A program made the translations under genes and the position numbers. The notes below the pieces were generated by a model that did not search any database, was not told the origin of the DNA, and saw only the letters and a list, made by a program, of their open reading frames with translations. This document shows positions 6,992 to 60,375 of a DNA stretch of 64,000 nt, piece by piece. Positions within the stretch are counted from its first letter, which is position 1; every line of letters begins with the position of its first letter. The stretch covers positions 544,001 to 608,000 of the forward strand of contig OY970178.1 of assembly GCA_963707915.1 (NCBI GenBank), read 5' to 3'. Source of the DNA: Candidatus Eiseniibacteriota bacterium (GTDB taxonomy: Bacteria > Eisenbacteria > RBG-16-71-46).

Positions 6992-7065
6992 GGGCCCATA
7001 GCTCAGTGGTCCAGAGCGGCCGGCTCATAACCGGCAAGACCCTGGTTCGAATCCAGGTGGGCCCA
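6992..7065 (+). tRNA. tRNA with CAT anticodon, probably tRNA-Ile2 (lysidine type)
   Basis: GGGCCCA/TGGGCCC acceptor, GCCGG-CTCATAA-CCGGC anticodon arm, GGTTCGAATCC T arm. No initiator features; CCA not encoded. Confidence 0.9.
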
Positions 7066-7107: not shown

Positions 7108-7183
7108 GGGCGGGTAGCTCAGCTGGCAGAGCACCTGGATCACAACCAGGGGGTCACAGGTTCAAGTCCTGTTCCGCCCACCA
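7108..7183 (+). tRNA. tRNA-Val(CAC)
   Basis: GGGCGGG/TCCGCCC acceptor, CCTGG-ATCACAA-CCAGG anticodon arm, GGTTCAAGTCC T arm, encoded CCA. Confidence 0.93.

Positions 7184-10069: not shown

Positions 10070-10086
<17 letters not shown>
9649..10086 (+). CDS. rnhA: Ribonuclease HI (archaeal/actinobacterial-like type)
   Basis: DGGSRGNPGPA, TNNVAEY, DSELVVRQMTGEYRVK, RREANTHADRL. Confidence 0.93.
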
Positions 10087-10486
<400 letters not shown>

Positions 10487-10718
10487 GTGTTTCCTTCCGG
10501 AGAGCCGCCGCGCGCACGGGACCGCCCAGGCGGATCCTGCCGCGCCGGCGGTGCCGGACGGCCGGGACGCGGCATCACGCGCGCGACCGACGGCGCCGGG
10601 CCGATACAGGTCCGAGGCCGGCGGTGGCGCGTCCTTGACCCTTTGGAAGCGAGGCTGACAGCGTGACCGAAGCGTCGTCCTCCGTCGCGCGCCGCGTGCT
10701 CCCGTTCGTGGGCCTTCC

Positions 10719-56762: not shown

Positions 56763-57491
56763 GTGGAAGACACGCGGATGTCATGGAAGACGGACGCCGA
56801 GCAGGGGATCCGTGGCCTGCCGGACGTCGAGGACGCGAAGATCCTCGTGGAGGCCGGCGAGATCCGCGAGGTCCACGTCATTTCGTCGGCACGCAAGCCG
56901 GCGAAGCTCATCGTCAAGGACGTGGTCGGCCTGATCTGGACCCGCTACAACCGGCGCATCGACCACCGCATCGTCGGCGTGGTGCGCGTCCGGTCGCAGG
57001 CGGACTCGGCCGCGAAACCCGAGCCCGTGAGCGTGCTCGAGGAGGCCGCGCCGGCGCCGCCGGACGCCAGCCGCGTCCGCTTCGGGAGCGTCAACCTCTA
57101 CATGGACGGCGCGCGCGGCCAGGCGCAGGTGGAATTGCGCTGGAAGGGCATGCTGCGCATGGGAAGCGCCTCCGGCTGGTGCTCGCGGCAGGGGTCGCAC
57201 CGCCTGGTGGCGGCCGCCACGCTGACGGCGCTGCAGGAGTTCCTCGACGACGACGTCGCCCTCGGAGTGGAGGGCGTGCACGTGGTGGGCATGGGCGGCC
57301 ACGAGATCGTGATCGTGGGCGTCACGCTGCTCACGCACCGGCAGGAGAAGCTCCTGACCGGCTGTTGCACGGTGGGCCGCGATCTCCCCCAGGCGGTCGT
57401 CCTGGCCTCCCTTTCAGCCTTGAATCGCGTGATCGGCGGCCTGAAGACGAAGGAGCCGATCGAGTACGTCTTGAGACCGGCATCGACCTAG
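56763..57491 (+). CDS. Hypothetical two-domain protein; C-terminus resembles the LeuA allosteric domain
   Basis: AAGGAG SD; N-domain EIREVHV..KLIVKDV..IDHRIV; Pro/Ala linker; C-domain ends G...RDLPQAVVLASLSALNR. Confidence 0.8.
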   Translation: MEDTRMSWKTDAEQGIRGLPDVEDAKILVEAGEIREVHVISSARKPAKLIVKDVVGLIWTRYNRRIDHRIVGVVRVRSQADSAAKPEPVSVLEEAAPAPPDASRVRFGSVNLYMDGARGQAQVELRWKGMLRMGSASGWCSRQGSHRLVAAATLTALQEFLDDDVALGVEGVHVVGMGGHEIVIVGVTLLTHRQEKLLTGCCTVGRDLPQAVVLASLSALNRVIGGLKTKEPIEYVLRPAST

Positions 57492-57593
57492 GAGCCAGCG
57501 GAGCGACAAGACAATCGAGAAGCGAAGCGAAGCCGCCTGTCGGGAAGCTGTTCGTACCCGCAGAGTCCCATGCCAAGTAAGGAGGTGGGCTTC

Positions 57594-57644
57594 GTGCTCT
57601 TTATCCTCGAGCTCTTGGAGTTCTTCGGCCGCGCGGGCTGGTAA
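57594..57644 (+). CDS. 16-aa small peptide MLFILELLEFFGRAGW
   Basis: TAAGGAGGTG SD at 57578-57587, 6 nt before GTG; stop TAA 57642-57644. Confidence 0.7.
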   Translation: MLFILELLEFFGRAGW

Positions 57645-57749
57645 CCTAGTCCCGTACGTCCGGACCTAGGAAGTGACCTCCGAAGTGGATGCCGGTCTCT
57701 GCATCTTCACGCATGCGGAAGCCCACCCGCCCCCGATGATCGACCTCGC

Positions 57750-59075
57750 ATGAAAGACTCGCCGGTCCCGACCCACCCGCGCGCGTTCCGGCTCTACTAC
57801 GCGCTCGTGGTGCTGGCCGCAGGCGCCTTCTTCGTGCTGGCCACGCCCACGGCGGGGGCGCCGCGGCTGGTGGCCCTGGGCGTCGTCCTGGTGCTGATGG
57901 TCGTGAGCGAGGCCCGCCCGGTGCCGCTCCCGAGCGGCGGCTACGCCACCGGCAGTGCCGTGCTCGACCTGGCGTCGATCATCATCCTGGGCCCGGTGTG
58001 GACCGCGTGGGTGGACCTGGCCAGCACGGTGATCGTGCAGGGCGTCCTGCTGCGCCGGCCCCTGGTGCGCGTGCTGCACAACGTGTCCATCTTCGCGCTC
58101 ACCTCGTTCGTGGCGGGCTACGCCTTCCTGGCCGCCGGGGGGCAGGTGGGCACCCTCGCGTTCCCGCGGCACATCGTGCCGCTGCTGGTGTGCGGGGGCG
58201 TCTACTTCCTCTGCAACTCGACGCTGGTCTCGACCGTGCTGGGGCTCACGGTGGGCCCCGGACCGTGGCGCATCTGGCAGCGCAACTTCCTGCAGGGGAT
58301 CCTGCACCACCTCTCCTTCGTGGCCCTCGGCACGCTGGTGGCCGTGGTCTTCTTCAGCGCGGGGCCGTGGGGCCTCGTGCTGGTGGGGATCCCGTTCCTG
58401 GTCGCACGCCACTCGTTCGGCGTCTACATGGAGATCCGCGCGGACCTCAAGGACTTCGTCCGTGCCCTGTCCGAGGTGCTCGAGGAGGTGGATCCGTACA
58501 CCCGCCACCACTCGCACCGGGTCGCGCAATACGCGGTGCTGCTGGCGCGCGGCATGCGGCTCTCGGAACGCGAGGTCGAGGAGATCGAGTACGCGGCCCT
58601 GGTGCACGACCTGGGCAAGATCGGGCCGCAGCACCAGCACATCCTGCAGAAGCCGGGCTCGCTGTCGCACGAGGAGCAGCGCACCTTGCGGGCCCACCCG
58701 GCTGCCGGGGCCGAGATCGTCGCGCGGGTCCGGGCGCTGCGGCGCTCGGCGGAGATCGTGCGCACCCACCACGAGCGGCCCGACGGCCAGGGCTACCCGC
58801 TGGGCCTGCACGCGGAGGACGTGCCGGTGGGGGCCCGCATCCTGAACGTGTCGGACGCGTTCGACGCGATGACCTCGGACCGCCCGTACCGGCGGGCGCT
58901 GTCGGTGGCGGCGGCGCTCGACGAGTTGCGGCGCGGCGAGGGCTCGCAGTTCGACCGGGCCGTGGTGGAGTGCCTGCTGCGCCTCTACGGGTCGGGACAG
59001 TTCCCGCTGATCCCGAGTCCCACGAGCGAGGACCTGCAGCTGTTGCGCCTGAAGCCGCGCGAGGCCCAGGGCTGA
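57750..59075 (+). CDS. Membrane-bound HD-GYP cyclic-dinucleotide phosphodiesterase
   Basis: About 6-7 N-terminal TM helices, then DPYTRHHS, HDLGKIG, HP..G, HHERPDGQGYPLGL, DAFDAMTSDRPYR. Confidence 0.93.
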   Translation: MKDSPVPTHPRAFRLYYALVVLAAGAFFVLATPTAGAPRLVALGVVLVLMVVSEARPVPLPSGGYATGSAVLDLASIIILGPVWTAWVDLASTVIVQGVLLRRPLVRVLHNVSIFALTSFVAGYAFLAAGGQVGTLAFPRHIVPLLVCGGVYFLCNSTLVSTVLGLTVGPGPWRIWQRNFLQGILHHLSFVALGTLVAVVFFSAGPWGLVLVGIPFLVARHSFGVYMEIRADLKDFVRALSEVLEEVDPYTRHHSHRVAQYAVLLARGMRLSEREVEEIEYAALVHDLGKIGPQHQHILQKPGSLSHEEQRTLRAHPAAGAEIVARVRALRRSAEIVRTHHERPDGQGYPLGLHAEDVPVGARILNVSDAFDAMTSDRPYRRALSVAAALDELRRGEGSQFDRAVVECLLRLYGSGQFPLIPSPTSEDLQLLRLKPREAQG

Positions 59076-59328
59076 AGGACTGACGTCCGCCGGCCCGTCG
59101 CGGCCGGCGTGGCCCCCGGGAGTGAGACAGGGCGACGTGACGTGCGGCCGCTCCCCCGCGCGCCACGTCACCGAGGCACGTGCCCCCGGCGAGGCGGGCG
59201 TTCCTGCACGCGGCAGGGCGGGGCCTGGTGGCCGGGCCCGCCTGCCGGTCGGGGCGCACGGGGGACGGGGAGCCGGGGTGGCGGGCGCTGCCCGCGGCGT
59301 CCCGTGGGGCGGAGGGGAGGACGGGAGG

Positions 59329-60375
59329 ATGGAGCGCCTGCGAAGCGAACGAGATCCGGATGCGCCCGCCGCGAAGGCGGACCGCGCGGCGACGCCCGCC
59401 ATGCTGGGGGACTCGCCGGCGTGGGCGGCGGTGCGGGAGATGCTGCCGCGGGTCGCGCGCAGCGGGCTCCCGGTGGTGGTGCTGGGGGAGACCGGGACCG
59501 GCAAGGAGCTGGTGGCGAGGGCGATCCATGCGCTCTCGGCCCGTGCCGCCCAGGGGTTCGTGGCGCAGAACTGCGGCGCCACGCCCGACACGCTGATCGA
59601 GAGCGAGTTCTTCGGCCACACGCGCGGGGCCTTCACCGGGGCGGTGGCCGACCGGGCGGGGCTCTTCGAGTCGGCCGCCGGGGGCACGCTGTTCCTGGAC
59701 GAGATCGGGGACGCCAGCGCCCTGCTCCAGATGAAGCTCCTGCGCGTGCTCCAGGAGGGCGAGGCCCGGCGCGTGGGGGACACCCGCCTGCGCCGGGTGG
59801 ACGTGCGGGTGGTCTCGGCCACGCACCGCTCCCTCGAGGAGGCCGTCGCGGGCGGGAGGTTCCGGGCGGACCTCTTCTTCCGGTTGAACGCGGTCCGCGT
59901 GAGCCTGCCCCCGCTGCGGGAGCGCGGCGACGACGTCCTCGTGCTGGCGCGGCACTTCCTGGCGGGAGCCGCGGCGCAGCTGGGACAGGAGCCGCCCGTG
60001 CCGGACCCGGCGCTGGTCGACCACCTGCGCTCGTACGCCTGGCCGGGCAACGTGCGGGAGCTGGCGAACGCCTGTGCCTACGCGGTGCACGTGGGCGGAG
60101 CGCGGGAGCAGGCGGACCTGTCGCACTGGCCGGAGACGCCGTCGATGCCGGGGCCCGGCGCGCGACCGGTGACGGCGGGACTTCACGCCGAGACCCGCGC
60201 GCTCGAGGAACGCCGGCTGCGCGAGGCCCTGCAGCGGACCTGCGGGAACAAGTCGCAGGCGGCCCGTGCCCTGGGGCTCTCGCGCCAGGGGCTGCTGAAG
60301 AAGCTGCGGCGCTACGGGTTCACCAGCGCGGAGTCCGCGGCGCTCGCTCTTGACGGTGCGGGGGGCGCTCCCTAG
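59329..60375 (+). CDS. sigma54-dependent enhancer-binding protein without N-terminal sensor domain
   Basis: GGAGG SD; GETGTGKE, GAFTGA, FLDEIG, RFRADLFFRL, WPGNVREL, Fis HTH NKSQAARALGLSR. Confidence 0.92.
   Translation: MERLRSERDPDAPAAKADRAATPAMLGDSPAWAAVREMLPRVARSGLPVVVLGETGTGKELVARAIHALSARAAQGFVAQNCGATPDTLIESEFFGHTRGAFTGAVADRAGLFESAAGGTLFLDEIGDASALLQMKLLRVLQEGEARRVGDTRLRRVDVRVVSATHRSLEEAVAGGRFRADLFFRLNAVRVSLPPLRERGDDVLVLARHFLAGAAAQLGQEPPVPDPALVDHLRSYAWPGNVRELANACAYAVHVGGAREQADLSHWPETPSMPGPGARPVTAGLHAETRALEERRLREALQRTCGNKSQAARALGLSRQGLLKKLRRYGFTSAESAALALDGAGGAP

Follow-up and report, generated by a model that had tools for sequence, protein, structure and literature searches.

A conserved micro-gene within a structured RNA precedes a MASE9/HD-GYP phosphodiesterase gene in Candidatus Eisenbacteria

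In a 64,000-nucleotide stretch of a Candidatus Eiseniibacteriota genome (hereafter the window; GenBank assembly GCA_963707915.1, contig OY970178.1, positions 544,001 to 608,000, forward strand), a micro-gene of 16 codons lies between the gene of a 242-residue protein, which we call up242, and that of a membrane protein carrying a MASE9 domain and an HD-GYP cyclic di-GMP (c-di-GMP) phosphodiesterase domain. Comparison with related genomes shows that this frame is a genuine micro-gene, conserved and kept by purifying selection on the peptide, and that it is surrounded by an RNA whose helices P1 and P2 covary, P2 doing so across lineages and phyla. It also shows that the tail of the peptide, G[KRQ]xGW, is a tag at the level of the protein, which a second, independent gene context links to MASE9. 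The three-part module formed by up242, the RNA with its peptide, and MASE9/HD-GYP is found across most of the phylum and, with differing sequence, in Bacillota. We propose that the RNA gates translation of the micro-gene and that the peptide may act on the adjacent MASE9 domain.

Results

A conserved micro-gene behind an exceptional Shine-Dalgarno site

The micro-gene comprises 16 codons and a stop, MLFILELLEFFGRAGW (57594..57644, plus strand), from a GTG start (57594-57596) to TAA (57642-57644), and encodes the peptide M L F I L E L L E F F G R A G W. It is preceded, across a spacer of 6 nt, by the Shine-Dalgarno (SD) site TAAGGAGGTG (57578-57587, plus strand), whose 3′ half together with the spacer (57583-57594) forms the 3′ strand of helix P2, described below. 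The positions of site, start and stop agree with those of an initial annotation, made from the letters of the window, which had proposed a peptide gene here and had singled out its SD as the longest anti-SD match noticed. The word AAGGAGGTG is present once in the 64-kb window and 32 times in the whole 3.62-Mb genome, and the full TAAGGAGGTG has a single occurrence in this genome of 72% G+C. Because the complement of the 16S rRNA 3′ end reads AAAGGAGGTGATC (genome position 1427915), the SD pairs with the 16S rRNA over 9 nt in the window; in most relatives, whose site reads AAAGGAGGTG, the pairing extends over 10 nt.

A 501-base query around the micro-gene matched 31 of 61 related genomes, and many of the family-level matches stop exactly at the micro-gene stop codon. 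At all 20 aligned loci, AAGGAGGTG, a GTG or ATG 6-7 nt further on, the frame and the stop are kept. SD, start, frame and stop are likewise intact at 36/36 loci of the window's family, which overlap the 20 aligned loci, and at 17/17 distant syntenic loci, while the frame is intact at 48 of 49 named Candidatus Eisenbacteria loci, the remaining one being cut by a contig end. The proposal of a genuine peptide gene is thus borne out in all three sets.

Across the 36 family loci the peptide follows the consensus M-[DE]-x-I-L-E-L-[VIL]-x-F-[FL]-[GTS]-[RKQ]-A-G-W. The C-terminal A-G-W is nearly invariant and the basic residue before it varies between R, K and Q; the N-terminal helix is conserved too, at I4, L7, F10 and an acidic residue at position 2. 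All indels in the micro-gene are in frame, giving family peptides of 8/11, 12, 16, 17, 18 and 19 aa, and GKAGW is retained even in the two genera of the window's family whose peptides are as short as 12 aa and 8-11 aa. Among 27 aligned sixteen-codon versions, column entropy at codon positions 1, 2 and 3 is 11.6, 5.7 and 16.2, respectively. The invariant Ala before GW is written as GCG (10), GCC (12), GCT (4) or GCA (1), and the basic position as CGC, CGG, CGA, AGA, AAG, AAA or CAG. The initial annotation had suggested a check on conservation in relatives, which we carried out: SD and frame are conserved, and the ratio of nonsynonymous to synonymous differences (pN/pS) is 0.53 in frame, whereas out of frame it is 0.91 and 2.73. 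That annotation had also drawn attention to TTT and TTG as rare codons; both occur in the window's micro-gene but are not conserved (TTT at codon 3 in 1/27 versions, TTG at codon 8 in 7/27).

The micro-gene is single-copy, no paralogue being found in the window's genome. Frames of at most 30 aa that end in [RK]xGW and follow an SD amount, in this genome, to the micro-gene and three unrelated frames with weak SD-like words. The HD-GYP gene starts 105 nt past the micro-gene stop codon, and no SD is visible in the window sequence ahead of this start. Among sequencing runs, no RNA run was listed as containing the stretch, and the eight DNA runs contain at most 0.14 of the words sampled from it.

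A structured RNA around the micro-gene

The micro-gene is enclosed by a series of RNA features on the plus strand. The outermost helix, P1, pairs a 5′ arm within the last up242 codons, GAGACCGGCATC (57473..57484), with a 3′ arm, GATGCCGGTCTC (57688..57699), and is prolonged by P1b, a short extension in which GGAG (57491..57494) pairs with CTCC (57678-57681). Two AGCGRAGCG boxes follow: box 1, AGCGGAGCG (57497..57505), is nearly invariant at 20/20 loci, and box 2, AGCGAAGCG (57521..57529), directly adjoins the anti-SD strand. The latter (57528..57538) is the 5′ strand of P2 and pairs with 57583-57594 both in the minimum free energy fold and in RNAalifold. Two further hairpins were judged by eye from the alignments: P3, inside P2 (CTGTCGGG...CCCGCAG, 57537..57563), which differs in sequence and length lineage by lineage, and the G+C-rich P5, directly 3′ of the stop codon (57645..57670), whose position is occupied by a hairpin of differing sequence at most aligned loci. 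Finally, a pyrimidine/U-rich run (57700..57709) comes after P1; over 53 loci the mean T fraction of the 10 nt past P1 is 0.43, with at least 5 T in 25/53.

The 25 named pairs are formed in 95.4% of cells, versus 39-52% when the partner is slid, and their covariation score was reached by 0/500 shuffles. P1, with 12 pairs, is 97.1% paired in the set of 20 sequences, where its pair 19/283 is GC in 10, AU in 8, GU in 1 and UA in 1; in the 53 sequences of a model-fitted alignment this pair is GC in 15, GU in 8, AU in 27 and UA in 3. For P1b, 90% of cells are paired (20 sequences), and pair 40/545 is GC in 40 and CG in 11 of the 53 sequences. The rare codons TTG and AGA are fixed in the region of the P1 5′ arm at 19/20 loci. 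As for P2, the stretch that follows box 2 can in every lineage pair with the SD and spacer of that same lineage, the anti-SD/SD pairs reading CCCACCT/AGGTGGG, GGACCCATC/GGTGGGTTC or GGCCATC/GGTGGCTGC and, in Bacillota, GATATAGCC/GGCTATATC. Cognate anti-SD/SD duplexes have a mean energy of -15.0 kcal/mol (36 loci) versus -8.8 kcal/mol for 310 cross-phylum non-cognate pairs. Nucleotide by nucleotide, boxes, P1 and P2 are more strictly conserved than most of the frame.

Since this conserved, covarying anti-SD helix takes up the 3′ half of the SD, translation looks gated rather than constitutive. The initial annotation had described the micro-gene as highly translated, a description that calls for this qualification. 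At least one AGCGRAGCG box is present at 17/17 distant syntenic loci versus 0/3 stand-alone peptide operons (see below), and boxes were seen solely where up242 directly precedes the micro-gene.

Rfam 15, run on the window at the gathering threshold, returned just an RNase P RNA and two tRNAs, all elsewhere; a search of 57300-57950 with the E cutoff relaxed to 10 returned a single chance match, of 19 bits, on the opposite strand, and nothing was matched in five Bacillota loci. A scan of 57200-58000 for consensus promoters and terminators found no promoter-like site on either strand, and its sole terminator-like site falls within the HD-GYP frame. A conserved alternative to the P1 helix, of the kind that an antiterminator would require, was not found. 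Downstream of P1, GAAGCCCACC (57718-57727) perfectly complements the SD and spacer (57584-57593) over 10 nt and is a second possible anti-SD in the window; being weakly kept within the genus, it was dropped as a general feature.

The peptide tail in other gene contexts

Other Eisenbacteria families have longer and more hydrophobic peptides, for example of 21-24 aa ending in RAGW or GKAGW, and hydrophobic forms of 20-31 aa occur in families f2, f14 and f16 of our phylum sample and in Bacillota. This agrees in part with the suggestion of the initial annotation that the micro-gene encodes a signal or membrane peptide: a small hydrophobic or membrane type is found in most lineages, but the form of the window's family is amphipathic, and the window's peptide has two acidic residues. 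In two families the tail is repeated in frame two or three times, as DGKGGW...DGKGGW...GKAGW in f3 and as GGHAWW three times in f13, with acidic linkers separating the repeated cores. Pfam and NCBIfam searches with seven longer peptide forms matched no family, the two chance-level matches having E values of 0.038 and 0.17.

The pattern G-K-A-G-W-stop is present in 68 of 153 genomes, and the reversed control pattern gave 3 hits in total. Family f11 is central here: it has 2-5 GKAGW tail hits per genome in 29/30 genomes, and MASE9 in 30/30 genomes although it has up242 in 0/30. It has stand-alone MASE9 proteins, of which the four tested all score 26.8-31.2 bits against a Pfam cutoff of 24.3. At 7 of 10 f11 loci, a stand-alone MASE9 gene is flanked by a lipoprotein gene ending in ...HFS[RK]Y..GKAGW, and at one more locus the beginning of a lipoprotein gene of this kind is visible. 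Taking roughly four tail hits per 3-Mb genome, we estimate chance adjacency of a tail and MASE9 within 1.5 kb at approximately 0.4% per locus. The predicted lipoproteins are of ~190-230 aa, have a signal peptide and a lipobox, and end in ...HFS[TRK]Y..GKAGW (loci L185-L191 in f11; L086, L087, L096, L099 and L102 in f1). Extra tail hits in the window's family are also lipoprotein ends at at least 5 of 6 loci examined, and no HFS-type tail is present in the window's own genome. In other protein families HFS is an autoproteolytic site, and it might be one in these tails.

A third setting is that of stand-alone operons in f11 and f17, in which a sigma-54-like word, TGGCAC-N5-CTGCT, precedes two tandem genes of 18-24 aa, each with its own SD and ending in G[KR]AGW (oriented copies of L073, ~1455-1830; L075, ~1400-1790; L076, ~1350-1660). 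Those of L073 and L075 are closed by an intrinsic terminator. Their neighbours are unrelated to the present module, namely a HAMP protein and Lon, or an extracytoplasmic function (ECF) sigma factor and a tRNA synthetase. Unlike these operons, the micro-gene of the window has no sigma-54-like promoter word before it.

Partner genes and distribution of the module

The upstream partner, up242, is encoded at 56763..57491 on the plus strand and ends with TAG at 57489-57491. It matches no Pfam or NCBIfam family, and all names shown among the 120 listed of its 566 homologues read "hypothetical protein". In an AlphaFold2 (AF2) model with a mean predicted local distance difference test (pLDDT) score of 82.8, it folds into two domains, alpha-beta-beta-alpha-beta at the N-terminus and (beta-beta-beta-alpha)x2 at the C-terminus. 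Foldseek matched the model to 3fig_A (E 2.9e-5) and 3f6h_B (E 1.8e-4), with matches ranging from 3e-5 to 8e-4, and VIA-align to 3f6g_B (Z 8.8, rmsd 2.9 over 109 residues) and 3fig_A (Z 7.2). As modelled, the C-terminal domain shares the fold of the regulatory domains with which LeuA and citramalate synthase bind Leu or Ile, and its ligand need not match theirs. PF08502, the LeuA allosteric/dimerisation domain, gave no match to up242 even at E 10, and a sub-threshold one to an actinobacterial homologue (E 0.0066; 16.8 bits, cutoff 24.9). For the N-terminal domain, Foldseek gave weak rows resembling the double-stranded RNA-binding domain and VIA-align gave generic alpha/beta folds (Z at most 8.4), which together lend no support to an RNA-binding role.

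The downstream partner is a membrane protein of 441 aa (57750..59075, plus strand), a c-di-GMP phosphodiesterase with an HD-GYP domain (HD_5, 8.9e-36) and, at residues 70-216, MASE9 (PF20972; 25.8 bits against a gathering cutoff of 24.3). MASE9 is argued by Galperin and Chou (bioRxiv 10.1101/2021.11.05.467447) to bind its ligand within the membrane. Directly 3′ of the HD-GYP gene lies the gene of a sigma-54 activator (59122-60375), so that the order in the window is argS, PfkB kinase, up242, micro-gene, MASE9/HD-GYP, sigma-54 activator and oxidoreductase.

A covariance model built from the 20 aligned loci finds exactly one copy of the RNA in 82/89 family genomes, comprising 43/44 good-quality genomes and 28/28 genera. 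Over the phylum sample it matches 80/151 genomes, including 57/58 in f1, 3/3 in f2 and 6/6 in f3, all three families of the order, and several others. Families f10 and f14 are missed by the model yet have boxes, SD and frame (3/3 f10 loci and 1/1 f14 locus), and the one f4 locus inspected has none of the three. The up242 gene is found in 119/153 phylum genomes. At distant loci PfkB, up242, the micro-gene and HD-GYP stay together, with up242 at 17/17 and HD-GYP at 16/17, the seventeenth being cut by a contig end. Synteny with HD-GYP holds at 47/49 named Eisenbacteria loci; in the two exceptions a contig end cuts the locus or lies close to it. The link to the HD-GYP gene drawn in the initial annotation is therefore upheld by synteny across the phylum and, as follows, in Bacillota.

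Homologues of up242 that are approximately 30% identical exist in Bacillota and Actinomycetota. At 5/5 Bacillota loci, the up242 homologue is followed by AGCGAAGCGGA, by an anti-SD strand (GATATAGCC versus GGCTATATC) and by a hairpin, with an AGCGRAGCG-type box and GGA ahead of the anti-SD strand at each of them. The P3 equivalent reads CTGTC..GACAG and carries a second box-like word, AGCGAAGG, in its loop. After the hairpin come an SD and a membrane-type peptide of 27-31 aa. A long-range helix of 15-22 bp, of unrelated sequence, encloses the micro-gene at 3/5 loci, two of which have a T-run after it, and at the other two a local G+C-rich hairpin closes the structure. Next comes a membrane HD-GYP gene at the four loci with sequence extending to that point, the fifth being truncated at a contig end. 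The frame is thus kept in Bacillota although both the RNA and the peptide sequences differ.

The Actinomycetota up242 loci have neither the RNA nor the micro-gene frame. At two of them a frame of 24 Arg/Lys-rich residues (MSKRARKRR...) with an SD lies 3′ of the up242 homologue (L166, ~2243-2317; L173, ~2289-2363); we take it to resemble a very small basic ribosomal-type protein.

Discussion

Based on these comparisons, we propose a mechanism in which the micro-gene lies inside a gating RNA and its peptide is the working part of the module, most likely acting on the adjacent MASE9 domain; about half of our confidence goes to this reading. The RNA would keep the strong SD partly paired in P2, which begins right behind the two AGCGRAGCG boxes, whereas P1 and the U-rich run would enclose the whole micro-gene and end or protect the transcript. 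Because P2 holds the SD and P1 encloses the micro-gene, synthesis of the peptide would be gated and not constitutive. A factor bound to the boxes, possibly up242 loaded with a small metabolite, would open P2, and the product, a short amphipathic or hydrophobic helix with a G[KRQ]xGW-COOH tail, would bind MASE9 either as a ligand or as a small accessory subunit that tunes c-di-GMP breakdown. Such an action would fit the suggestion of Galperin and Chou that the MASE9 ligand is bound inside the membrane.

Several observations weigh against this mechanism. Folding of the single sequence 57492-57752 is no better than that of shuffles (z -0.03; other strand +1.07), so that it is comparison that carries the RNA structure. 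P1 and P2 are themselves largely invariant within the window's family, for which reason the covariation comes from few columns and from the cross-lineage comparison; the 53-sequence alignment was produced by the covariance model and is hence fitted to it. The family peptide, of 16 aa and in two genera of 8-12 aa, is too short and too acidic to span a membrane. It is also devoid of an export signal, whereas the lipoprotein tails should be extracytoplasmic, and because of this differing topology a binding site shared by the 16-mer and the lipoprotein tails is not obvious. Lastly, the Bacillota peptides lack the Trp tail, Pfam gave no MASE9 on the one Bacillota downstream protein tested, and the Bacillota downstream protein is similar by tblastn merely from about residue 104 onward.

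Small proteins that modulate membrane proteins include MgrB and SafA, which act on PhoQ, MgtR, which acts on MgtC, and AcrZ, which acts on AcrB. The present peptide resembles MgrB-type modulators in being well under 50 aa, hydrophobic in most lineages, and encoded beside a multi-pass membrane signalling protein with which it has been kept together over long evolutionary distance. It departs from them in its supposed target, a MASE9/HD-GYP phosphodiesterase that is neither a kinase nor a pump and that it would bind only by our proposal, in its fixed G[KRQ]xGW tag, in the 16-aa amphipathic form of the window's family, and in being wrapped in a dedicated RNA. That RNA is akin to riboswitch platforms and RNA thermometers insofar as SD and spacer are sequestered by an anti-SD strand in a helix that covaries across lineages. 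Unlike these, it has no Rfam match, its single-stranded AGCGRAGCG boxes look more like a protein site, and the controlled gene is a micro-ORF (open reading frame) inside the structure.

A wider and more speculative proposal, in which we place only limited trust, is that G[KRQ]xGW-COOH is a C-terminal address read by MASE9. The module would then form a closed circuit: the LeuA-type protein would sense a metabolite, bind the boxes and free the SD, the peptide would switch the phosphodiesterase, and tailed lipoproteins would feed the sensor from outside. The design of RNA and micro-ORF would in that case predate the split between Eisenbacteria and Bacillota.

An alternative to a peptide acting on MASE9 is that the micro-ORF acts in cis as a leader or arrest peptide, so that translation of, or pausing on, ...[RK]AGW-stop remodels P2, P5 and P1 and sets read-through into HD-GYP, the released peptide being idle. 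Well-known cases are trpL, mgtL and the SecM-type Arg-Ala-Gly-Pro motif, of which the tail of the micro-peptide is, we presume, reminiscent. As in those systems, a tiny ORF lies between two operon genes within a structured RNA before the gene to be regulated, here with a helix and a U-rich run just ahead of HD-GYP. The 8-12-aa versions that keep GKAGW would suit the size of a nascent-chain signal, and the P1 5′ arm overlaps the end of the up242 frame, so that translation could affect P1. We nonetheless consider this explanation unlikely. The basic residue of the motif is variable (R, K or Q) and the N-terminal helix is conserved as well; the stop codon is 43 nt ahead of the P1 3′ arm, beyond the reach of a ribosome at the stop, and no alternative antiterminator was found. 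The motif is, moreover, a protein tail elsewhere: it is internal in longer peptides, terminates lipoproteins of ~200 aa, and occurs in stand-alone paralogues whose operons are closed by a terminator with no gene to control. These last contexts also count against the more specific idea of the initial annotation, that of a Leu/Phe/Trp-sensing leader. The peptide has no regulatory codon run, with one terminal Trp and with Leu and Phe scattered as in a hydrophobic helix; the downstream genes encode MASE9/HD-GYP and a sigma-54 activator and no amino-acid biosynthesis; and the same peptide family is found in stand-alone tandem genes with nothing downstream to control.

The peptide could instead be the precursor of an exported or modified signal, in which the helix is a leader and the core G[KRH]xxW is excised, perhaps cross-linked, and sensed by MASE9 from outside. 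The in-frame repetition of the core with acidic linkers in f3 and f13 and the tandem gene copies speak for it, and cleavage at the HFS of the lipoproteins, an autoproteolytic site in other protein families, would release an 11-15-mer ending in GKAGW. However, no radical-SAM, YcaO, lanthipeptide, peptidase or ABC-export gene is present in the neighbourhood of the micro-gene or beside the two stand-alone operons examined, and no Pfam or NCBIfam precursor family was matched. The C-terminus is conserved and the N-terminus variable, the opposite of most precursors. For a ribosomally synthesised and post-translationally modified peptide a modifying enzyme or exporter would be expected nearby, and the neighbouring genes, from argS to the oxidoreductase, include none; of a layout with leader and repeated core, the repeated tails are seen in f3 and f13, and a single tail in the window's family. 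This origin of the peptide is, in our judgement, quite doubtful.

It is also conceivable, if distinctly improbable, that the peptide reports to up242 and not to MASE9, its C-terminal Trp carboxylate entering the LeuA-type pocket and up242 then acting on the boxes or on HD-GYP in a feedback loop. The resemblance of the up242 C-domain to Leu/Ile-binding regulatory domains of LeuA and citramalate synthase is in line with this, as are the adjacency of up242 to the micro-gene, the location of the P1 5′ arm inside up242, and the occurrence of the boxes just where up242 directly precedes the micro-gene. By contrast, f11 has GKAGW genes (29/30 genomes) without up242 (0/30), actinobacterial up242 homologues lack the micro-gene, and the matches of the N-domain are to generic alpha/beta folds, none of them pointing to RNA binding. 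TRAP, HutP and PyrR are ligand-activated RNA-binding attenuation proteins that read short repeats, and the gene of up242, with its LeuA-regulatory-like domain, directly ahead of an RNA with two purine-rich boxes beside the deciding helix suggests a likeness to them; they differ from up242 in that no RNA-binding fold is recognised in it and in that there are two boxes only.

A membrane peptide of the type I toxin kind, with an mRNA silenced by fold-back pairing as in hok and aapA1, seems to us very improbable. The long-range 5′-3′ closing helix P1 and the SD hidden in P2 around a tiny hydrophobic ORF are shared with those mRNAs, and the longer forms in other families and in Bacillota are membrane-like, but the micro-gene is single-copy, strictly syntenic and vertically kept in 82/89 family genomes, and the acidic 8-16-aa forms of the family are too short to span a membrane. 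Neither an antisense partner nor a promoter-like site on either strand was seen, and the free variation of third codon positions argues against a conserved antisense RNA. Finally, that the RNA is a structured non-coding one with an incidental open frame is scarcely credible: boxes, P1 and P2 are indeed more conserved in nucleotides than most of the frame, but frame, start and stop are kept at every complete locus, the indels are in frame, a three-base periodicity is evident, Arg is replaced by Lys through all three codon bases (CGC to AAG), and in Bacillota the frame is kept despite different RNA and peptide sequences.

We found no description of the module in the literature, judged largely by titles and abstracts, on MASE9, on small proteins of Eisenbacteria, or on HD-GYP proteins with leader peptides or small membrane proteins. 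What the present analysis adds is the Bacillota version, the covariation of the anti-SD helix across lineages, the predicted LeuA-type fold of up242, and the link of the tail to stand-alone MASE9 and to lipoproteins. The signals perceived by the membrane-embedded MASE domains of c-di-GMP enzymes are, to our knowledge, not known, and a fixed-tail peptide beside MASE9 in two independent gene contexts is a concrete and synthesisable ligand candidate. If the proposal is true, MASE-type sensors would, with the peptide tail, gain their first assigned class of ligand. The RNA element, which has no Rfam family, spans at least two phyla and appears to gate a micro-ORF. More generally, the locus shows that a signalling operon of an uncultured phylum can have as one of its core parts a gene of 8-20 codons, which gene callers do not see, and the Bacillota version may provide a cultivable host for experiments.

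Other sites in the window and genome

The RNase P RNA returned by Rfam is of class A (window positions 10071-10489; 254.9 bits), and the two tRNA genes lie at 6992-7065 and 7108-7180. Outside the window, at genome position 1134137 on the minus strand, a lysine-rich frame of 22 codons (MAAKKKVAKKKV...) follows a 12-nt SD, AAGGAGGTGATC. At genome positions 353669 and 2995095, both on the plus strand and outside the window, AAAGGAGGTGG is followed after 5 or 8 bases by AACCAGACC, with no start codon after the SD-like word; these sites may be two copies of another RNA element.

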